Assembly (NCBI GenBank): GCA_031288185.1
Contig: JAITRZ010000048.1
Span: 31,307 to 95,306, forward strand
From: Coriobacteriales bacterium
GTDB lineage: Bacteria > Actinomycetota > Coriobacteriia > Coriobacteriales > UBA8131
Direction: 5' to 3'
DNA: 64,000 nucleotides
The notes under the pieces are model-generated. The model made no database searches, was not told the origin of the DNA, and saw nothing but the letters and a program-made list of their open reading frames with translations. Position 1 is the stretch's first letter, and each line of letters starts with the position of its first letter. Below are positions 1-34,099 of this stretch, in pieces. A program made the position numbers and the translations under genes.

Positions 1-453
1 GTGGTGGGTGGCGCTACCCGCAGGGCACTTGGCGTTCCGGAGACGGCATTCGTTGACTTCGCGCAGACTACCCTGAGCACCACAGCGCAGACACTACCGT
101 GTGGGACTTTCTATGGCAGTGACGTGTTCTTTTTGCTTGGAGCCGGCCAACTCGCCTTTGGCTCACACATCGAAAATACTCATTTTGAGCTTTGCGGAAC
201 CTATGTAGTGAATCATGGCTTCGCGGCCAATGACATCGTAGAGGTAGATATAATGCGCACCAGCCCAGGAGTCTCCGAGGGTGTGTACAGGCGCATCTAC
301 CTGAAGGCCATCAACGCGCAGCTGGAGCAGTGGCCATCGTCTTACACCTTATACTCGCCAACGGGTGCCACATGGCGCGTCACAGCGCGCAACACAACCG
401 CAGCGCGAGGGATAATTGGGCTCACGTTTTTGCTCAAAGAAATACGATTATAG
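1..453 (+). CDS. Phage protein, C-terminal fragment (function unknown, possibly tail/structural)
   Basis: Open frame running in from the window edge, directly upstream of the lysis cassette. I recognise no motif. Confidence 0.4.
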   Translation: MVGGATRRALGVPETAFVDFAQTTLSTTAQTLPCGTFYGSDVFFLLGAGQLAFGSHIENTHFELCGTYVVNHGFAANDIVEVDIMRTSPGVSEGVYRRIYLKAINAQLEQWPSSYTLYSPTGATWRVTARNTTAARGIIGLTFLLKEIRL

Positions 454-4631: not shown

Positions 4632-5252
4632 TTAACTGCTCATAAGGTGATACACCACGTAACCCGCATTTGGATCGAGCGTGCTTGTCCCATCTATCTT
4701 GATGGCATCATGCAGATCCTGGGTATACACGAGCCCACCCACACGGCTCAACCCGTAGGTCACCACAACCGTGGGATCTCCCGGTTTGCGACCTTCAGGA
4801 TAGACCATAAATGCGTCAGCGGTTAGCGCAGTCACATCCGAGCCAAGAGGGGCCACAAAGTGGACATGGAAGCGCATGTTGGTGGCTCCAAGCCCTATGA
4901 CATCGTTCATGAAAGTTCTCGAATACCCGGTAGCTAAGGTCGAAAGATCGGCGAGACTAAAGCGTTTTACAACAAACGCGGTGATGTCTGTCATCCCAGG
5001 CGCCCACCCGGTTGTGAAGTATCCTGCAGCATCCCCTGAACTGAATTTTCCGGCAGCATAGGCTTCATCAAGTACGGAGCGAGTTGCCTGCACAATGTCT
5101 CTAGCCTCGGCGATGTACTGCTCATCCTGCGCCTTCGCTATATAGCCCGTAAGCGCGGGGATGGCTATGGCGAGCAGTATGCCCAGGATAACAATAACAA
5201 CGATAAGCTCTACCAGGGTAAAACCGGTGCGTCTTTGTGAGGTTCCTCGCAC
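4632..5252 (-). CDS. Prepilin-type N-terminal cleavage/methylation-domain protein (pilin-like), locus 1
   Basis: Class III signal MRGTSQRRTG|FTLVELIVVIVILGILLAIAIPALTGYI (G-1, F+1, E+5). GTG at 5252 with GGGAGG 6 nt upstream. The frame stays open upstream to 5282 and, apart from one TGA, up to the ATG at 5606. Confidence 0.7.
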   Translation of the reverse strand: MRGTSQRRTGFTLVELIVVIVILGILLAIAIPALTGYIAKAQDEQYIAEARDIVQATRSVLDEAYAAGKFSSGDAAGYFTTGWAPGMTDITAFVVKRFSLADLSTLATGYSRTFMNDVIGLGATNMRFHVHFVAPLGSDVTALTADAFMVYPEGRKPGDPTVVVTYGLSRVGGLVYTQDLHDAIKIDGTSTLDPNAGYVVYHLMSS

Positions 5253-5606: not shown

Positions 5607-6010
5607 GTTTTACTCCTTTCAGATTGCCTGTTGTGGTGCCTGTCTTGGTGGTGCTTTGTCTTGATGCCTGCCTTACCTGCTTTTTCTGACAGCGCGTAGT
5701 GTAGCACAAGCGCAGGAGTGTGTCACCAGAGGTGTGTCACGCCTGTGCGTGGGTGGAGGCACATGGCGGATATATGCTACACTGGCGCTTTGTGTTGCTG
5801 AACTCTTAAGTGGTAGAACTGGCTTTGGCCTGGGGCCGCCTTATTGGCTGTTTCCCGTTTTTATGTTACAACGTTGCACAGGGCAGGAAGGCGCCACTGG
5901 TATCCTCTGACCATCGGGTGCCTCTCACCAAGGCCGTTGGTTGTGCCCGTTGCATCATGCTGGCCGCACCACAGTTTAAGACCAGGAAGAAATAGAGAAG
6001 GCACAGCATA

Positions 6011-23485: not shown

Positions 23486-25279
23486 CTATTGTTTCCAGTT
23501 AGCGTCAAGTGTACTCCAGTCTGCTCCGCTACTAAAGCTGGCGCCAAAGGTATCTTTATCGCTCGCAGGCACGTTATTGCCGTTGATGATACTTGTTGCC
23601 GTGCGGGTTTGTGCGGTGGCGATATCAAGGAAAGTGCCGGTGAAGACCGTCGCTTTATTGAGCTCAGTATCGCTCAGTTTTGGGAAGGTAAACACAGAAT
23701 TTACCTGAAAGATGAACACACCACTCATGGAACCCCGAGAAAACATCCGCTCACAAAAGTTGCTGTCTACGGTTGTTATGTTTTGGGGCAGGCTAAATAC
23801 ACTATTCATCGTAAAGGCAGTACCGTAGATATGAAACATGCCAAAGCAGAAGGTTTCTCCTGTAGACGTAATGCCCGAAGGGATAGTGAAAATTGAGTTC
23901 ATGTTAAAGGCGTCACCATCGGCATTGGAAAACATCATTGCGCAGAAACCACCTCCTACAGCACCTGTTATCTTTTGGGGCAGGTTAAAGATGCTATTCA
24001 TCGTAAAGGTGTCGCCCCACACGCCACGAAACATACCGCTGCAAAAATTTCCAGGTGCACCTGTTATCTTCTGGGGCAGGTTAAAGCTTGCACCCATGTT
24101 AAAAGCGGCTCCATTACATCCTAAAAACATATTGTTGCAAAAGTAAACTCCCACGGTATCTATGCTCTGGGGAATAGTAAAGGCATCTCCCATCGTAAAG
24201 AAGTTGCCGCCACAACCCCAAAACATCTCATTGGCGTAGTAGTTACCCGCGTTGTTTTCTGAGACATTCATACCCCTTTCAGGAAGGGGGCTTATAAGGG
24301 TGGCAACTTCAACGCTGGTGCCGGGTGTGTTCCGATACGCAAGGGCTCTAAGCCACTGATAGGTGTTTTCATCCCCTGTGACGTTTTCTTCTATCTTTAT
24401 GGTATGCTCACCGGGTGTGCCAACAGAAACAACAATGCCGGCGGTGTTATTGTTGCTCTGATAGGCGACGGGAAACCCGCTATCGACCGACACAAGCCAG
24501 TTGTATTTGCCTTCTGCACTCCCGCTACTAAATAAGCCGACTGTTGGTATGGTATGGGTGGTGCCCGCGGTCTGAACCATAAAGGAGAAAGACTCCAGAG
24601 TGGTGCCATAGGTTAGAGAGTCTTGTGAGGATTCATTTTTCAGGCGAAAACCGAGAAGTTTGTTGCTTTCATCAAAGCGTATGTCTACGATAGACCACTC
24701 AGTTGGGTCAAGATTGAGTTTGGCATATTCCTCTACAATCCCCAGCCAGGTTTCAGCAGTATAAGGAAAGAGGCTTGGTTTGTAAGGGGCAGGGGGATGG
24801 GTGAGGTTTTTGGCTGCGTCTGTGGCATTTGCTGGAGGTTTAACAAGGGCGCTGTTCCCTATAAGCCCATCAGCATATCTTTCTGTTGCCCAGGTTTGTA
24901 GCGCTTTTGCGATGGTGTCAGTGTAGGCTTGTTCTTTTATAGCTCCTGCCTTTTGTATATACCCTGTAAGCGCGGGTATGGCTATGGCGAGTAGGATGCC
25001 CAAAATGACAATGACAACTATCAGTTCTACGAGAGTAAAACCTTTAGGGTTAGTTTGTCTATGTATTTGTGGTGGGTCTTGTGCAGCGCCTCGCACAGGG
25101 GGCATCCGGTGAGTTCCACGGGCCGAGGAGCCCTGTTGATGGATCGAAGGGAATTTGCACGCAACGTTATCGAGGCAACGAGGACGAGGACTGTTTGAGC
25201 TGGCGTTCCCTGTGCGAGGTGCCCACGCGGCGACAGTCCCAGCGAGGTCGTTCTTTCCAAGAGATGAATCCGCATACAA
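23486..25279 (-). CDS. Pilin-like (class III signal) surface protein with a C-terminal array of roughly 26-residue repeats, locus 2
   Basis: NPKG|FTLVELIVVIVILGILLAIAIPALTGYI. About eight repeats of the form FCxxMFxGxxGxAFxMxSxFxLPQxITG span roughly 23644-24247. The open frame has no good start of its own at 25279. It joins the RBS-ATG at 25403 only if the G tract is 11, not 12. Confidence 0.75.
   Translation of the reverse strand: MYADSSLGKNDLAGTVAAWAPRTGNASSNSPRPRCLDNVACKFPSIHQQGSSARGTHRMPPVRGAAQDPPQIHRQTNPKGFTLVELIVVIVILGILLAIAIPALTGYIQKAGAIKEQAYTDTIAKALQTWATERYADGLIGNSALVKPPANATDAAKNLTHPPAPYKPSLFPYTAETWLGIVEEYAKLNLDPTEWSIVDIRFDESNKLLGFRLKNESSQDSLTYGTTLESFSFMVQTAGTTHTIPTVGLFSSGSAEGKYNWLVSVDSGFPVAYQSNNNTAGIVVSVGTPGEHTIKIEENVTGDENTYQWLRALAYRNTPGTSVEVATLISPLPERGMNVSENNAGNYYANEMFWGCGGNFFTMGDAFTIPQSIDTVGVYFCNNMFLGCNGAAFNMGASFNLPQKITGAPGNFCSGMFRGVWGDTFTMNSIFNLPQKITGAVGGGFCAMMFSNADGDAFNMNSIFTIPSGITSTGETFCFGMFHIYGTAFTMNSVFSLPQNITTVDSNFCERMFSRGSMSGVFIFQVNSVFTFPKLSDTELNKATVFTGTFLDIATAQTRTATSIINGNNVPASDKDTFGASFSSGADWSTLDANWKQ
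25089..25219. repeat. Perfect 12-bp inverted repeat, CCTCGCACAGGG (25089-25100) / CCCTGTGCGAGG (25208-25219), locus 2
   Basis: Read directly from the sequence. The arms are 107 bp apart. Confidence 0.9.
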
Positions 25280-25386: not shown

Positions 25387-25647
25387 GGCGAAATTTGTGA
25401 CATGTTTTACTCCTTTCAGATAGCCTGTCTTACCTGTCTTTTGTGATAGCACGTAGTATAGCACGCCGCAGGGAAGGGTGCATGCGGGACATTTTGTTTT
25501 AGCTTGGAGTATGTCACCTTGTAAATGGGGTACAGAAGAACCCATATTGCAGCACAAAAGAACCGACAGGCTGTGTCGCTGGTCGCTGCCGCGTCACCGT
25601 ACATGCTGTCTTTGCCTAGCGGCATAGGTGGGCGCTATAATGCGAGT

Positions 25648-25863
25648 ATGAATACAAATCAGATCATAGCCATGTGGGCAAGCAACATCATACTTGACTA
25701 TGCGGCGGACAAGGCGGTTCAGGTAGATGAACTGCCACAGCTTGTGGAGAAGCACAAACTCGCGGCTTTTTTGATTGATAACTACGAGTTGTTCCATCTG
25801 TACCCCGATGCAGCAGTGTTCGATGAAATCGATAAGGAAATTGCGAGAGCGGCCGATGGCTGA
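25648..25863 (+). CDS. DUF3791-like small helical protein
   Basis: MNTNQIIAMWASNIILDYAADK... It sits directly upstream of, and overlaps, a DUF3990-like gene, which is a commonly seen pairing (recalled). Confidence 0.6.
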   Translation: MNTNQIIAMWASNIILDYAADKAVQVDELPQLVEKHKLAAFLIDNYELFHLYPDAAVFDEIDKEIARAADG

Positions 25864-26362
25864 ACTGCTTTATCACGGTTCTACGGTTCTGGTAGAGCAT
25901 GCCAACTTATCATTGGCGAATCCTAAACGTGATTTTGGCGTGGGTTTTTATACCACCTCATCTTATGAGCAGGCAGTCCGTTTTAGTAAGATTGTGGCCA
26001 GAAGGTTAGGAAGTGCCCAGGGCGTGGTCAACAGGTATTCCTTTAGGGCGGTCAACGATCTCGTCGTCCTTCGGTTTGAGCGCGCAGATCAGGAGTGGTT
26101 AGACTTTGTACTTTCAAACCGTAGGCATACCGCCGGATCCAAAAACCCTCCAAATGGGGATCTGATTATCGGCCCAGTCGCAAATGACCAGGTGGGGCGC
26201 ACTTTGAATCTCTTGGCAACCGGCGCATACGGTGACCCAAATTCAAACAGGGCAAAAAGTTTCGCCTTGTCCCTACTGATGCCGGAGAATCTGACCGATC
26301 AGTGGGTATTCAAGACTGAAAAGGCCGTACAATGTCTCGAATTTTTGGGAGCTGATGAATAG
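25856..26362 (+). CDS. DUF3990-like protein with a PARP-like H-Y-type ADP-ribosyltransferase signature
   Basis: MAELLYHGS ... DFGVGFYTTSSYEQAVRFS parallels the PARP WHGS ... FGKGIYFAD block. The start overlaps the upstream stop. Confidence 0.65.
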   Translation: MAELLYHGSTVLVEHANLSLANPKRDFGVGFYTTSSYEQAVRFSKIVARRLGSAQGVVNRYSFRAVNDLVVLRFERADQEWLDFVLSNRRHTAGSKNPPNGDLIIGPVANDQVGRTLNLLATGAYGDPNSNRAKSFALSLLMPENLTDQWVFKTEKAVQCLEFLGADE

Positions 26363-30493: not shown

Positions 30494-32155
30494 CTATGAC
30501 AAATCCATGCGAAAAGCGGGGCGGACACCAAACCCGTTGAGCGCATTGTAGTTAGCGGCCAAGCCCGTAGTACCAAGAACCGCAATGACGCTGGAAGCGT
30601 CACCGCGCGGAGAGCGGAGCCAGTATTGAAAGAGAGTGTAAGGGTTTACCCCGGAGGTCTTTCGTGCGTTGGCATCAGCAAAGAGGACAACGCTTGAGCC
30701 GTAGAGGTTCTTGGTGAGATCCATGCTTGCGGCATCGGTGGCAGGGTAGTCCAGCGCGCGAAACACCTCTTCCTGGCTGAGAAAGAACAGCTTCTGGTTG
30801 GTGAGTTCATAGTAGCCGTTGTGTCCGCTGTCAGAGGCACCTCCTGTCTTATAGGGCGCTGTGCGTGCGTCACTAAAGCCTATTCTTGTATAGAGGGTGG
30901 TATCGAGTATCTTTGCCTTGATGTCTGTGAGGTTGTCATAGCTGTAGGCATAGGTGTTGCTATTGAGGGACGCTCTGAGCGTGCTGCCATCCCAGCGGAT
31001 GTCGGTATCCCAGTTGGTGCTGGGATAGTTGATTGATTTGGCATCTATGATGTGTTCTGCGATGACCAGGACATCAGCGTCGCTTTCCTTGTGTAAGATA
31101 CGCCAGTCATAGCCGTTGGCGGCAAAGGTGTCGCCACGCTTCAGGTTCTTGGAGGGCTGGCGGCTCGCCTGAACATCAAAGGTTATGGTGTAGGAATCTG
31201 CGGTGAGAGTGGCCATGCCGGTGGCGCCTGCCGGGATGGACACAGAGGCTGAGGCACCTGATGGTATCAGTGCAGCGCCGGTTGAGCCCGCGTTAAGCTG
31301 CCAGCCTCCTGCAGGAGGTTCACTGGCCGTGAAGTAGCGCACTGTCGGGTATCCCGCAGGGCTCGTGAGGCTGATAATATGGCTCAGGGAGGTCAGATTA
31401 GAGCCGCCTTCACTGTAGAAAAGGTCATAGGGCATCTCCCCGTAGTCTGCAAAGTCACTTATGTCCTTTGTGTTTATGATGCGCAGGCTCAAGAGTTTGT
31501 TTTTGCTATCAAAGGCAACATTCACCAGTCTCCAGTCACCCGTGCGCAGATCTAACTTTGAGTACGAGGCGACAATACCCTCCCAGCTCTCTTCATCTGT
31601 CGTACCACCGTAGGAGGCAGGGTCAACCGGGTCAGAGGCATTTTCCAAGGGGTCAGCGGCATCAGGAACTACTAGGGCTATCTGTCCTATGAGGTTTTGT
31701 GCCAGTCTCTCTGCGGCCCAGGTTTGGATGGCTTTAACAGAGGTGTTGAGGTCTGCTTCTTTTTTTACGCTTCCTGCTTTTCCTATGTATCCCGTAAGGG
31801 CAGGTATGGCTATAGCAAGGAGGATACCTAAGATAACTATCACTACGATAAGTTCTACTAAGGTAAAACCTTCAGGGTGAGCTATCCTGCGGGTGTATGG
31901 AGGGTCTTGTGTAGCCCCTCGCACAGGGAACGTCCGGTGAGTTCCGCAGACCGAGGAGCCAGGTTGTGGGGCCGCAGGATAGGTAGAGCTACCAAGGCGA
32001 CGAGGTCGCAGAGTGTTTGAGTCGGCATCCCCTGTGTGAGGAGCCCACGCTAAGACGGTGCGGCTTAAACCGGCACCAGGGGCAGTTCTCCCTGTGCGTG
32101 GGGCCCACGCGGCCAGTGCTTCTTGTGTTCCCATTTGTGCTATCTCAGATAACAA
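30494..32155 (-). CDS. Pilin-like (class III signal) surface protein with a DUF6273-like C-terminal domain, locus 3
   Basis: HPEG|FTLVELIVVIVILGILLAIAIPALTGYI. The N-terminal roughly 170 aa after the signal are homologous to locus 2. The C-terminus (WRILHKE...LFFLSQEEV...YWLRSPRG...GVRPAFRMDL) resembles DUF6273 (recalled). The open frame joins the RBS-ATG at 32279 only if the G tract is 11. Confidence 0.75.
   Translation of the reverse strand: MLSEIAQMGTQEALAAWAPRTGRTAPGAGLSRTVLAWAPHTGDADSNTLRPRRLGSSTYPAAPQPGSSVCGTHRTFPVRGATQDPPYTRRIAHPEGFTLVELIVVIVILGILLAIAIPALTGYIGKAGSVKKEADLNTSVKAIQTWAAERLAQNLIGQIALVVPDAADPLENASDPVDPASYGGTTDEESWEGIVASYSKLDLRTGDWRLVNVAFDSKNKLLSLRIINTKDISDFADYGEMPYDLFYSEGGSNLTSLSHIISLTSPAGYPTVRYFTASEPPAGGWQLNAGSTGAALIPSGASASVSIPAGATGMATLTADSYTITFDVQASRQPSKNLKRGDTFAANGYDWRILHKESDADVLVIAEHIIDAKSINYPSTNWDTDIRWDGSTLRASLNSNTYAYSYDNLTDIKAKILDTTLYTRIGFSDARTAPYKTGGASDSGHNGYYELTNQKLFFLSQEEVFRALDYPATDAASMDLTKNLYGSSVVLFADANARKTSGVNPYTLFQYWLRSPRGDASSVIAVLGTTGLAANYNALNGFGVRPAFRMDLS
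31917..32101. repeat. Inverted repeat set at locus 3: CCTCGCACAGGG (31917-31928) versus CCCTGTGTGAGG (32030-32041) and CCCTGTGCGTGG (32090-32101)
   Basis: Read directly from the sequence. Each distal arm has one mismatch, and the upstream unit is duplicated. Confidence 0.85.
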
Positions 32156-32250
32156 AAAACCGCCTGGCGCACGGGCCTGGGCGGCGTCTTTGGCGCGTAC
32201 ACTCGCGCCCTCATAGGTGTTAGTGGATGGGAGAAGAGCGAAGCTATGAG

Positions 32251-32262
32251 CCCCCCCCCCCC
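32251..32262 (-). repeat. Homopolymer tract, 12 C on plus strand (G12 coding strand), locus 3
   Basis: Counted directly: ten c at 32251-32260 plus two c at 32261-32262. Confidence 0.95.
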
Positions 32263-32686
32263 GGCGAAATTTGTGACATGATTTGCTCCTTTCAGATTAA
32301 CTGTTTTGATGTCTGTTTTGGTAATGCGTGTCTTAGTGGTGCCTGTCTTGGTGCCTATCTTGCCTGTCTTTTGCGGCAGCACGCAGTGTAGCACAGGCGT
32401 GGGCAAAAGGACACAAGCGCCTAGGGACGTGTCCCACGCGACACAAGGCAAAGAGATGCGCACAGGGAAGCGGCACACCGACGGGGAGAAGCATGCGAGG
32501 GGGGGGCGGTCGCCTGTGTTGCAAGGTTGTCAGCCCTGCCAGAGGAGCGCACGCCCTGTTTTTGATGATGCCAACAACAAGGGCCGGATACAGAGCGCCG
32601 CCTTGGGGAAGTTATTTTTAAGTACCATTCAAACGGGCCGGTTTTGCCCCTCGCGTGACAGTTCCCCAAGGCGACTGCGCGGCTAC

Positions 32687-34099
32687 TTAAATACCAAGCA
32701 CTCCTACAATGAAGGGAACCCAAAGGGCAATGAGTAGTATCAGCGCGGCGGCCGGCACAATGCCGGTCTTGAACATGTCGCCAAACCTATAATAGCCTTC
32801 CTGATAGGTCAGCATAACAACCGGGTTGACGGGCAATAGCATATTGCCAGCAACAACTATCGCCAAAGAGATGGTTGGCACGGCGGGCGAGACACCAAAG
32901 CCGGCGCAGAGGGTGATAAAGATAGGAATGAAGATGCCAAGGATCGCCACGCCTATCGGGCAGATGGTGTGCAGGATATAGACCAGGGTCATCAAAACAA
33001 TAACGGAGCCGACGAAGCCCAGTGAGGTCACGCCGCTGTCCATAAAGACATCGGCCATCCACTGCGCGCCGCCGGTTTCCTGCACCACATTGCCCAGCGT
33101 CATAATAGCTCCACACATAATGACGATGCCCCAGGGCACGGCGTTTTGGAATTCCTTCCAGGTGAGCAGGTCGATCCCCGGCAAAAACATCACCGTTAGA
33201 CCAAGGAGCGCCACGGCGCTGACATTTAACACGGGTATCCAGTTGCTCAGTATCCACAACACGATGAGCAAAACGATCATCAGCAGGGCCTTTATGTCGT
33301 AGACAGAAACCTTCTTTGCCGCTGAGGCTTCGGCGCGGATCTCCTCAAAACTGCTTTCCTTGATTGGCTCTGGTTTGAGTATTCTGGTGATGAAAAACCA
33401 GCTGATGGGCGTCAGGATAATCGCCACGGGCAGGCCGATGATCATCCAATCAAAAAAGCTGATGGTCTGTCCGGTTATCTGCTGCATAAGGTTCATCGCG
33501 ACAACGTTGAACGAGCTGCCAGCAGGCGTCGCTATGCCGCCAGTGACGGAGGCCACCGGGATGCCAATCATCAGGCATTTACCTAGATTGGAGTGTCCTG
33601 GCCTGGCATTGGACGCCTTGAGAATGGTCATGGCAAAGCCAAGAAAGAGCACAGTGGTGGGCGAGTCTGACATCACGGTGGACACCAGGGCGGTGGCCGC
33701 CATAAAGCCCAAAACCAGCCTGCGCGTGTTTGTTCCTGTCCAGGTAAGCAGCCGAGCTATTATGCGCACGCCCCATTGGGTCTTTTGCATGACTGCGGGC
33801 AATGCGAATATGGAGATGATAAAGAAGAGCGCGGGGCTGCTAAAGCCGCTAAATGCCGCTCCAAAACTTGTAACCACCCCCAAAAGCGGCAACAAAACAA
33901 GAATCAGCAACGCGATAGCACCAAGGGGCAGGGTGTTTGTCATCCAAAGCATGACCAGAGCAAGCAGCAGGCCCAGGGTCATAATGCCCGCATGACTCAA
34001 GGTCTCCGTTGCAGGTAAAAGCACGGAGGTGACGATGCAGAGCAGTGCCAACACAATTCCAACAAGTCGTTTTTGCGGGGAAACTTCTAACGATTCCAT
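32687..34099 (-). CDS. SLC13/DASS-family anion (di/tricarboxylate or sulfate) permease
   Basis: 470 aa and highly hydrophobic, with the two-fold repeat architecture and GIATPAGSSFN / hairpin-type motifs of the family. Confidence 0.8.
   Translation of the reverse strand: MESLEVSPQKRLVGIVLALLCIVTSVLLPATETLSHAGIMTLGLLLALVMLWMTNTLPLGAIALLILVLLPLLGVVTSFGAAFSGFSSPALFFIISIFALPAVMQKTQWGVRIIARLLTWTGTNTRRLVLGFMAATALVSTVMSDSPTTVLFLGFAMTILKASNARPGHSNLGKCLMIGIPVASVTGGIATPAGSSFNVVAMNLMQQITGQTISFFDWMIIGLPVAIILTPISWFFITRILKPEPIKESSFEEIRAEASAAKKVSVYDIKALLMIVLLIVLWILSNWIPVLNVSAVALLGLTVMFLPGIDLLTWKEFQNAVPWGIVIMCGAIMTLGNVVQETGGAQWMADVFMDSGVTSLGFVGSVIVLMTLVYILHTICPIGVAILGIFIPIFITLCAGFGVSPAVPTISLAIVVAGNMLLPVNPVVMLTYQEGYYRFGDMFKTGIVPAAALILLIALWVPFIVGVLGI

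Follow-up and report, generated by a model that had tools for sequence, protein, structure and literature searches.

Phase-variable pilus loci that resemble the one considered here have been described in two other bacteria. In Bifidobacterium breve UCC2003, Penno et al., (2022, PMC9187656) described an intragenic G-tract that acts as a replication-slippage switch in the sortase-dependent pilus loci bbr_0113 and bbr_1889; bbr_0113a is an upstream ORF of 24 nt (7 codons) that ends just past the G-tract (PMC9187656). In Streptococcus gallolyticus, phase variation of pil1 was attributed by Danne et al., (2014, PMC3894217) to leader-peptide repeats acting with transcription attenuation. Type IV pilins provide a further point of reference, as PilB of Streptococcus sanguinis is a modular type IV pilin in which an N-terminal pilin module is joined to a large C-terminal functional module (PMC8179133). 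The leaders of prepilins in described systems are short and hydrophilic, at 6-26 aa, with none above 26 aa in the review by which we judge them (PMC4471445).

The locus described here, locus 3, lies in a 64-kb stretch of Coriobacteriales DNA (the window), together with two sister loci. We consider it probable that this genome has three or more copies of a phase-variation module governing modular type IV pilin-like adhesin genes, locus 3 among them. From 5' to 3' on the minus strand, the features of locus 3 are as follows.

32394-32385, minus: putative promoter with an extended -10 box, GTGCTACACT (TG-n-TACACT), about 105 nt 5' of the ATG
32384-32294, minus: 5' untranslated region rich in C and A; its short tandem repeats are imperfect and resemble AAGACAGGCACC
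32293-32286, minus: Shine-Dalgarno (SD) sequence GAAAGGAG, 6 nt 5' of the ATG
32279-32277, minus: leader ATG
32279-32244, minus: short ORF as assembled (G12), ATG TCA CAA ATT TCG CCG GGG GGG GGG GGC TCA TAG, translated as MSQISPGGGGS and a stop
32262-32251, minus: poly-G tract, G12 (a C run on the plus strand), the proposed slipped-strand switch
32209-32192, minus: first hairpin, GGCGCG-AGTGTA-CGCGCC, from local folds
32191-32154, minus: intrinsic-terminator-like element, AAAGAC-GCCGCC-CA-GGC-CCGTGC-GCC-A-GGCGG-TTTTTT, with A-tract, GC stem and T6
32153-31871, minus: spacer from the terminator-like element to the pilin motif, open in the pilin frame for 94 codons
31924-31922, minus: conserved in-frame GTG (PVRG), 19 codons 5' of G/F (the slash marks the cleavage site), which may act as a secondary start; its SD is weak
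31870-30494, minus: mature pilin-like protein, 457 aa after the cleavage-site Gly, with Pfam N_methyl and DUF6273

An earlier note on this DNA had read the SD-ATG-G12 leader as out of frame with a pilin-like ORF of 553 codons, with G12 giving MSQISPGGGGS and a stop and G11 a fusion to that ORF, and had placed a conserved box at 32385-32394. The sequence agrees with the leader so placed, both readings were recovered on re-reading, and the box is present as GTGCTACACT. The 553-codon ORF also exists, but its TTG start sits inside the T-run of the terminator-like element, and some 95 of its codons belong to the leader and precede the mature pilin. Directly 5' of G12 stands TCACAAATTTCGCC, and the tract is reached five codons past the ATG. 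As assembled, the ORF stops at the TAG at 32246-32244, two codons past the tract, for a product of 11 aa, whereas with G11 the frame reads MSQISPGGGAHSFALLPSTNTYEGASVRAKDAAQARAPGGF... and is continuous with the ORF at 30494-32155, for a product of 594 aa. Tract lengths of 3n are OFF, and those of 3n+2 (G11, G14) are ON, the ATG then becoming the probable prepilin start. The 3n+1 phase gives a dead-end ORF of 45-46 codons that extends past the terminator-like element, so that the two wrong frames at locus 3 are not equivalent. The homopolymer is positioned as in a contingency locus, a change of 1 nt switching the full-length ORF on or off. The three module tracts are the only G/C homopolymers longer than 8 nt in the window, the next longest being 8 and 7 nt, and the 31-nt string of SD, ATG and leader occurs three times in the window at up to 2 mismatches, against 0 expected.

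Upstream of the SD, the extended -10 box is kept at all three window loci and is found as TGTGCTACAAT and TGTGCTATCAT in two other MAGs; a search for a -35 element for the locus 3 box gave no match, and a simple sigma-70 scan returned nothing for it. The repeats of the 5' untranslated region, reported by TRF at 32325-32370, vary in copy number among the three window loci, the alignment being shorter by about 55 nt here at locus 2. The likeness to B. breve, also a member of the Actinomycetota, lies in a short ORF with a good promoter and SD, a pilin ORF in another frame without its own SD, an OFF phase in the reference state and a change in G number that fuses the two ORFs. The pilins themselves differ, as those of B. 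breve are LPXTG sortase substrates with a Sec signal, whereas locus 3 encodes a class III (type IV pilin) signal and an N_methyl domain. The Coriobacteriales loci also differ from those of B. breve in having 60-137 unconstrained codons between the start and the signal peptide.

The G/FTLVE motif starts at 31870, and the mature N-terminus, G/FTLVELIVVIVILGILLAIAIPALTGYI, has the class III signal peptide and N-methylation motif of type IV pilins, with Gly at -1, Phe at +1, Glu at +5 and then about 21 hydrophobic residues. Pfam matches are to N_methyl (PF07963, 30.0 bits against a cut-off of 21.2) and, at residues 362-550 of the 553-aa ORF, to DUF6273 (PF19789, 56.4 bits against 23.5); the class III N-terminus and C-terminal DUF6273 together indicate a modular type IV pilin. 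No sortase-pilin domain of Pfam was matched in this protein. Homologues were found in Coriobacteriales MAGs. Gene callers handle these genes poorly, the start of locus 3 (P0001) being placed within the transmembrane helix and other copies being shortened or given spurious starts. The ORFs of the 64-kb window include no prepilin peptidase, assembly ATPase or platform gene, nor any other gene of the pilus machinery.

DUF6273 forms the C-terminal module of locus 3, and a repeat-rich domain that of locus 2. Fusion of a pilin module to a C-terminal module is what both loci share with S. sanguinis PilB, for which the abstract mentions no phase-variable leader (PMC8179133).

The two sister loci of the window, also on the minus strand, are laid out as follows.

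25464-25278, minus: locus 2 control module (-10 box 25464-25455; ATG 25403; G12 25386-25375; terminator-like element 25315-25278)
25042 (G/FTLVE) to 23486 (stop), minus: locus 2 pilin
5707-5250, minus: locus 1 control module (-10 box 5707-5698; ATG 5606; G11 5589-5579; terminator-like element 5519-5482)

Locus 2 is G12 and OFF as assembled, and locus 1 is G11 and in phase. At locus 1 an in-frame TGA (5375-5373) closes the leader ORF after 77 codons, matching the 77-aa gene call P0021, and a GGGAGG SD precedes a GTG (5252-5250) that lies 10 codons 5' of G/FTLVE (5225), the pilin ending at 4632. The in-frame TGA and the good internal SD-GTG imply that internal initiation is used at least sometimes. 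A poly-G switch is also known from Neisseria, where pilC varies in phase through a poly-G in its signal-peptide coding region, near the 5' end, and encodes a type IV pilus-associated adhesin; unlike the locus 3 product, PilC of this Proteobacterium carries a Sec signal and is no pilin, and its gene lacks both the long leader and the embedded terminator. The genes pgtA and lgt are among the other poly-G switches described in Neisseria.

The comparison of architecture covered nine complete pilin loci from three Coriobacteriales genomes, three in the window and six in two other MAGs. All nine share a common layout of extended -10 box, SD, ATG, 5-11 codons, G10-G15, stops, hairpin with T5-7, and pilin, a layout shared across genomes although the leader sequences have diverged. 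Both wrong frames end 1-10 codons past the tract at eight of the nine, the exception being the 3n+1 frame of locus 3, and the OFF-frame stop codons differ among loci (TAG, TAA). Among 99 GFTLxE pilin starts in 80 loci, a G run of at least 8 was found upstream of only the six in Coriobacteriales MAGs; G9 runs in two Firmicutes loci (L048, L066) were set aside as unrelated, lying 800-1800 nt from the pilin. Searches with the exact DNA pattern TATGAGGGCGCNNNNGTACGCGCCAAAGA gave no match in genome contigs or metagenome contigs, and leader-peptide alignment against metagenome contigs gave 125 pattern matches, of which 0 were confirmed. The earlier note had taken locus 3 for the second copy of an ON/OFF switch based on poly-G, set to OFF in the assembly, and the nine pilin loci in three genomes support this.

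In the window the tracts measure 11, 12 and 12 nt, and in the two other MAGs 10, 11 and 15, all as read from metagenome assemblies, in which long G runs are error-prone. Two homologous tracts in leaders of the window type, of 13 (P0013) and 14 (P0026, MSQISPGGGGAHS... fused to pilin), were deduced from protein gene calls, as were the ON-phase fusions P0011, P0019 and P0020; L002b and L011 are in the ON phase as assembled. Could the tracts instead be stable and in frame in the cell, the G12 being a homopolymer miscall and the gene an always-ON long-leader pilin? Long G runs are difficult to sequence, the four complete Gx485 loci all have exactly G15, L005 begins with a C44+C11 artefact (gross poly-C junk) where its tract should be, and many of the homologous genes are cut short in the gene calls by the end of a contig, a sign that assemblies break around the repeated module. 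A fixed frame would nevertheless leave unexplained the wrong-frame stops (TAG, TAA) right after the tract at nearly all loci and the terminator that follows; in addition, homologous tracts vary by up to 3 nt among loci, the long G/C tracts of 64 kb are confined to these modules, and tracts of similar length slip in an actinobacterial pilin gene (PMC9187656). We regard an artefact as very unlikely.

Homopolymer runs of 9 or more can bring about transcriptional slippage. A related proposal is that the switch is not heritable at all, slippage of RNA polymerase, or of the ribosome by frameshifting, at the G run putting a fraction of transcripts or translation products back in frame and giving G12 constitutive low expression and no heritable OFF state. 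It gains from the position of the tract in a translated stretch, two codons ahead of a stop. Such recoding would make a switch at the DNA level leaky and not substitute for it, there is no sequence resembling a frameshift stimulator, the hairpins beginning about 40 nt past the tract, and expression from comparable B. breve tracts was attributed by the authors to replication slippage (PMC9187656). Recoding as the whole explanation also strikes us as very unlikely.

The terminator-like element sets these loci apart from those of B. breve, in which transcription falls past the stop codon of the upstream ORF and the polarity is dispersed, without a defined terminator, whereas the Coriobacteriales loci have a discrete conserved hairpin and T-run. 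At locus 3 the hairpins start about 40 nt 3' of the tract, the T6 run (32159-32154) lies 91 nt past it, and in the pilin frame the element translates as ...APGGFL. The fold energy is -18.6 kcal/mol over 48 nt and -26.7 with the first hairpin included, which is present at all three window loci, the locus 2 copy having one stem mismatch. None of 500 dinucleotide shuffles of the locus 3 leader gave an equally good hairpin and T-run. Equivalent hairpins and T-runs with differing stem sequences are present at 10 of 10 related loci; across loci the hairpins are of -9 to -14 kcal/mol, stand directly before T5-7 and are matched by 0-1.4% of shuffles, and in the six loci of the two other MAGs the hairpin and T5-7 lie 91-147 nt past the tract. 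The local hairpins alone are striking; folded in full, the leader RNA is unremarkable (z = -1.44). A terminator scan missed the element because its loop limit was 3-8 nt, and local folding with shuffles was used in its place; in RNAalifold on the ten terminators the stems were not lined up by the MAFFT alignment, and no formal covariation is claimed.

The OFF-frame stop (32246-32244) precedes the terminator-like element by about 53 nt, and the same order of stop then terminator holds at nine of nine loci. In four Gx485 loci the T-run is only 25 nt from G/F, from which it follows that pilin transcripts must cross the element. The same 25 nt rule out a separate small gene followed by a downstream pilin promoter. 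A known riboswitch was also considered and is unsupported, since Rfam at gathering thresholds matched tRNAs alone in the whole window, with no family on the leader, and Rfam at E <= 10 over 31700-32700 gave two chance matches. The hairpin and T-run in the leader suggest that the switch may also act on transcription, with termination predicted from the folds.

This arrangement is much like that of S. gallolyticus pil1, in which a leader ORF with its own RBS holds a variable repeat and is separated from the pilus gene by a stem-loop terminator of -18.7 kcal/mol (against the -18.6 of locus 3). In both, short leader frames end ahead of the hairpin, by 39 bp in S. gallolyticus and about 50 nt at locus 3, and long frames reach or pass it, which is proposed to block its formation. 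The systems differ in that the S. gallolyticus repeat is a pentanucleotide (GCAGA x 22) and the Coriobacteriales one a mononucleotide tract, and in that pilA has its own RBS and ATG, whereas the Coriobacteriales ON frame extends without a break into the pilin at eight of nine loci, locus 1 being the exception. The S. gallolyticus locus is moreover a sortase pilus operon of a Firmicute, whereas the Coriobacteriales module is multiplied before several dispersed single genes.

The pil1 precedent (PMC3894217) also raises the question of whether attenuation alone might be at work, the ORF from the ATG through poly-G being a regulatory leader peptide whose frame decides ribosome cover of the terminator, with the pilin starting internally at GTG 31924 behind a leader of about 19 aa and the upstream openness incidental. 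The conservation of the terminator-like element fits such a scheme, as do the canonical short leaders that the conserved GTG would give, MRGTSQRRTG/F at locus 1, MRGATQRRSG/F in P0013 and MRGALQGRSG/F in P0011. In the homologue P0005 a gene caller placed the start at this GTG (MRGTSQ...). Locus 1, with its leader stop and a strong SD (-10.3 kcal/mol) before the GTG, also fits, and the leader has a non-coding look. The spacer holds repeated GCGTGGGC.CC.CACAGGG blocks (AWAPRTG / AWAPHTG), and its amino-acid sequence is poorly constrained. Substitutions between paralogues at codon positions 1/2/3 number 19/19/26, 20/24/29 and 22/21/24, with hardly any third-position excess, so that this test brought out no coding-type constraint between the leaders of the window paralogues. 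GC by codon position is 0.65/0.67/0.51 in the leader against 0.64/0.40-0.48/0.60 in real genes here. By composition and substitution the leader therefore looks non-coding, and just its openness argues for translation.

That openness is extensive. The pilin frame is open from tract to pilin at eight of nine loci. Over 744 leader codons it contains a single stop, the other two frames 27 and 39, and the probability that it would be open by chance is 0.016-0.38 per locus. Indels between paralogues in the leader add up to multiples of 3, and a 108-nt palindromic insertion at L009 preserves the frame. Attenuation alone needs no open frame, yet the frame is kept through these indels and this insertion. 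Initiation signals also bear on the choice. For the leader ATG, the duplex of the SD with the anti-SD is of -7.2 to -9.5 kcal/mol across all loci. At most of them no other start has a good SD, those of internal candidates being mostly weak. At locus 3 the values are -8.2 kcal/mol at the ATG against -4.1 at the sole internal candidate, the GTG, and at locus 2 the SD before the GTG is likewise weak (-3.3). L011 has no in-frame ATG, GTG or TTG between tract and G/F, and the sole internal candidate of the Gx485 loci is a TTG within the T-run of the terminator. We therefore consider attenuation alone unlikely, though less so than either artefact or recoding. For locus 3, the leader would be 137 aa from ATG 32279 and 19 aa from GTG 31924, and the comparative evidence favours the long form. 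The earlier note had put the length from ATG to G/FTLVE at about 137 aa, far more than the 6-30 aa that it gave for type IV prepilins; the count of 137 aa is correct and is far above the 6-26 aa known for prepilins (PMC4471445).

The reading that we prefer, and hold to be probable, is that locus 3 has a slipped-strand phase switch, placed where a prepilin with a long leader really starts and reinforced by translation-dependent antitermination, and is OFF as assembled. Transcription would begin at the extended -10 promoter, and a strong SD and ATG open a frame that runs into poly-G after five codons. Slipped-strand mispairing in replication would alter the length of the tract, as the differences between loci and genomes suggest. 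With G11 or G14 the ribosome would read some 130 poorly constrained codons into G/FTLVE, giving a prepilin with a 137-aa cytoplasmic leader for prepilin peptidase to remove. In the assembled G12 phase translation would end two codons past the tract, and the hairpin and T6 would end transcription where no ribosome trails the polymerase, whereas ribosomes in the ON phase would override them. The OFF state would then be locked at transcription and translation alike.

A wider proposal, to which we give slightly less than even credence, is that type IV pilin-like adhesin precursors in this Coriobacteriales lineage carry translated leaders of 60-137 aa, whose sequence is irrelevant and which serve ribosome transit over the terminator. 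One slippage event would lock or unlock both transcription and translation, and independently switching copies, no two with the same C-terminal module, would vary the pilus-tip adhesins combinatorially. Such leaders, if true, would exceed every described class III signal peptide several-fold in length, and a long leader that is truly made and cleaved would alter the picture of the prepilin peptidase substrate.

In practical terms, these modules are places where assemblies break or are mis-annotated, and gene decay should not be deduced from the tract lengths of MAGs. The module would join two mechanisms so far described apart, the G-tract mini-ORF fusion of Bifidobacterium and the leader-translation-dependent antitermination of S. 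gallolyticus, and a whole gene family would share one portable control module. Homopolymer phase variation of pili would thereby reach uncultured Coriobacteriales and type IV pilin-like modular adhesins.

At locus 3, one of three pilin-like genes of the window that are each preceded by an ATG and poly-G leader module, the earlier note had described a ribosome-binding site, ATG and G12 leader out of frame with the pilin ORF, and this arrangement was found as described. The Shine–Dalgarno (SD) sequence, start codon and tract listed here were read in the sequence, and a promoter-like box stands where a conserved box had been claimed.

32394-32385, minus strand: promoter-like box GTGCTACACT
32293-32286, minus strand: SD sequence GAAAGGAG
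32279-32277, minus strand: leader ATG
32262-32251, minus strand: G12, preceded by TCACAAATTTCGCC after the ATG and followed by CTCATAG

As assembled, the leader reads MSQISPGGGGS and stops at TAG (32246-32244), and with G11 it reads MSQISPGGGAHSFALLPSTNTYEGASVRAKDAAQARAPGGFLLSEIAQMGTQEALAAWAPRTG..., continuous with the ORF 30494-32155; both products had been predicted and both were reproduced. The G11 frame reaches G|FTLVELIVVIVILGILLAIAIPALTGYI, the predicted prepilin cleavage site, at 31870, 137 residues after the ATG, matching the claimed leader of about 137 aa to G|FTLVE; the class III leaders described to date span 6-26 aa (PMC4471445). The proposal that this is a copy of a poly-G switch, OFF here, is supported and extended by sequence comparison, the same module being present at related loci, and we consider it probable that a heritable poly-G switch sits at the genuine translation start of a long-leader prepilin and is reinforced by a translation-sensitive terminator.

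The 31-nt SD–ATG–leader string occurs three times in the window at no more than two mismatches, against zero expected; the copies at loci 1 and 2 precede tracts of G11 (5589-5579) and G12 (25386-25375), respectively. These tracts are the only G/C homopolymers longer than 8 nt in the 64 kb; the sole further one of at least 8 is a G8 run on the plus strand (C8 on minus) at 32499-32506, some 105 nt upstream of the -10 box of locus 3. The alignment of the three loci extends from the -10 box as far as the pilin N-terminus; CTCATAGCTTAG stands directly after the tract, and loci 1 and 2 have a TAG in each wrong frame. Locus 3 has lost the second of these stops (GCT TCG versus GCT TAG at the others; 32230-32240, minus strand), and its 3n+1 phase therefore opens an ORF of 45-46 codons, which crosses the terminator and closes 12 nt past the T-run; this phase might allow transcription without a fused product. 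Between -10 box and SD, the 5' UTRs carry C/A-rich imperfect tandem units, AAGACAGGCACC-like with periods of 9-15 (minus strand; 32294-32384, 5620-5697 and 25418-25454), which differ in copy number among the loci, the locus 2 5' UTR being shorter by about 55 nt; they may serve as an array that binds protein or RNA, or may simply be prone to slippage.

Species-representative genomes were scanned with an alignment of pilin N-termini, giving 80 loci, six of them from two further Coriobacteriales MAGs, Nm470_bin152 and Gx485_bin20. Among the scanned loci, only these six carry a long run of G ahead of the pilin, the other 93 GFTLxE starts having no G run of more than 5 within 450 nt, and DNA pattern scans of genome and metagenome contigs for the closest homologues gave no match. 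The six share the layout of the window loci in different sequence.

Module layout across related loci
Promoter-like box: TGTGCTACAAT or TGTGCTATCAT
5' UTR: about 60-110 nt
Pairing energy of SD and anti-SD: -7.2 to -9.5 kcal/mol
Codons between ATG and tract: 5-11
Tract length: G10-G15
Stops in the wrong frames: TAG or TAA within 1-10 codons
Hairpin and T5-7: 91-147 nt past the tract
Distance between T-run and G|FTLVE: 25-283 nt

Any two frames can be joined in one phase of a tract, and fusability alone is therefore trivial. The pilin frame is open from tract to G|F in 8/9 loci, with one stop in 744 leader codons, against 27 and 39 stops when the remaining two frames are read; in dinucleotide shuffles the frame is open with a probability of 0.016-0.38 per locus, which for one locus per lineage comes to about 5e-5 to 2e-3 jointly. 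The frame is kept across a net difference of -48 nt between loci 2 and 3 and across a 108-nt palindromic insertion in L009, a pilin locus from another Coriobacteriales MAG. This near-perfect palindrome (2385-2495; GGTGGGACAGGAGGGACGGGGCTGG...CCAGCCCCGTCCCTCCTGTCCCACC), between terminator and pilin motif, resembles a small mobile element or a REP-like one. ON-phase fusions also occur among homologous gene calls, namely P0026 (MSQISPGGGGAHS..., with a 51-aa leader and four Gly, and therefore G14 as inferred from the protein call), P0011, P0019 and P0020 (MPGGG(G)AHS...), while P0013 implies a putative G13, and loci L002b and L011 are in ON phase as assembled. Non-heritable recoding at the tract is the least probable reading.

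A possible but unlikely alternative is that the module acts by attenuation only, the pilin being made from an internal start. Leader composition and substitution pattern resemble non-coding DNA and count against translation: substitutions between paralogues are spread nearly evenly over codon positions (19/19/26, 20/24/29, 22/21/24), unlike the pilin N-terminus, where changes fall mostly at third positions. A conserved GTG (PVRG) also lies 10-19 codons ahead of G|F in the window loci. A consistently good SD is found only at the leader ATG, internal candidates being weak at loci 2 and 3 (-3.3 and -4.1 kcal/mol), and L011 has no in-frame ATG, GTG or TTG between tract and G|F. Our reading is that the leader is probably translated, its amino-acid sequence being free of selection. 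Locus 1 is in phase (G11), but an in-frame TGA at 5375-5373 ends its leader ORF, and no other locus has so strong an SD, GGGAGG (-10.3 kcal/mol), 6 nt ahead of the conserved GTG (5252-5250, minus strand); it looks like a move to internal initiation once the fusion frame was lost, an exception that fits a translated leader. In the locus 3 spacer (31922-32120, minus strand), GCGTGGGC(N)CC(N)C(N)CACAGGG occurs twice, translated as AWAPRTG and AWAPHTG, each copy with hairpin potential (GCGTGGG/CCCACGC); WAPRTG or WAPRTE recurs in homologous leaders of other MAGs (P0006, P0013, P0022-P0024), with variants in others.

After the tract, the window loci have a first hairpin, GGCGCG-AGTGTA-CGCGCC, and then AAAGAC-GCCGCC..GGCGG-TTTTTT, an element shaped like an intrinsic terminator, with a folding energy of -18.6 kcal/mol at both locus 2 and locus 3 and of -15.3 kcal/mol at locus 1. 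A hairpin directly abuts T5-7 in 10/10 loci, and when each leader was shuffled an equally good combination arose in 0-1.4% of shuffles. Stem sequences differ by lineage (GCCGCCCAGGCCCGTGCGCCAGGCGG; GCCGCAGGTCTGAGGCCGGCGG; CCGCCGCTGTTCATTCTGAACAGGCGG). At four Gx485 loci only 25 nt separate T-run from G|F, too short for a separate promoter, and the pilin mRNA must therefore pass the hairpin. In OFF phases the ribosome would leave the mRNA about 50 nt ahead of the predicted hairpin, and in the ON phase it would translate across it; the same leader-translation/terminator logic was experimentally shown for S. gallolyticus pil1 (PMC3894217), whereas here it is predicted from sequence.

Every tract length was taken from metagenome assemblies, and in L005 a C44 and a C11 run stand at the contig start (125-184), where tract and upstream module are expected; these are probably assembly or sequencing artefacts at a homopolymer, and a warning on tract lengths in these MAGs. 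The complete Gx485 loci have G15 in 4/4. That the tract lengths are an assembly artefact is considered improbable.

The window is ordinary core chromosome, with era, ybeY, phoH, rsmE, dnaJ, hrcA, hemN, dus, metH, lepA, rpsA, obg and L21, a radical-SAM methylthiotransferase-like gene (Radical_SAM and UPF0004), several molybdopterin oxidoreductases and transporters. The pilin-like genes are single insertions among core genes, all on the minus strand, and no pilus machinery genes were found among the genes of the 64-kb window. A DUF3990 protein gene (25775-26362, plus strand), between the locus 2 module and lepA on the opposite strand, is a lone non-housekeeping gene adjoining the locus 2 insertion. 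The locus 3 protein scores 30.0 bits for the N-methylation motif and 56.4 bits for a DUF6273 domain at its C-terminus; the locus 1 product is a short pilin. Unlike locus 3, locus 2 (23486-25042, minus strand) is repeat-rich at its C-terminus, where a unit of 25-30 aa (F-C-x-x-M-F ... F-N-M-N-S-x-F-x-x-P-Q-x-I-T) recurs about eight times; this region resembles leucine-rich-repeat surface proteins and matched no Pfam family at E <= 0.01. Almost all homologues come from MAGs labelled Coriobacteriales bacterium; a Clostridiales MAG has one DUF6273 match, which is weaker. P0002, on the same 99,636-nt contig, points to a fourth DUF6273 pilin gene outside the window. Partial calls at contig ends are frequent among the homologues and suggest breakage of assemblies at the repeated pilin module; P0019, P0020 and P0022-P0025 end just past the conserved N-terminal helix.

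In B. breve UCC2003, G-tracts separate a mini-ORF that carries promoter and SD (bbr_0113a, 24 nt) from a pilin ORF that lacks expression signals of its own; the reference genome is OFF, slippage turns it ON, and transcription drops past the mini-ORF stop (PMC9187656). The S. gallolyticus system shares the leader and terminator design of the present module and differs in its pentanucleotide repeat and in the separate start of pilA; type IV pilins are involved in neither system. The present module, which has multiple copies across the genome, would combine the B. breve and S. gallolyticus designs ahead of type IV pilin-like modular adhesins.
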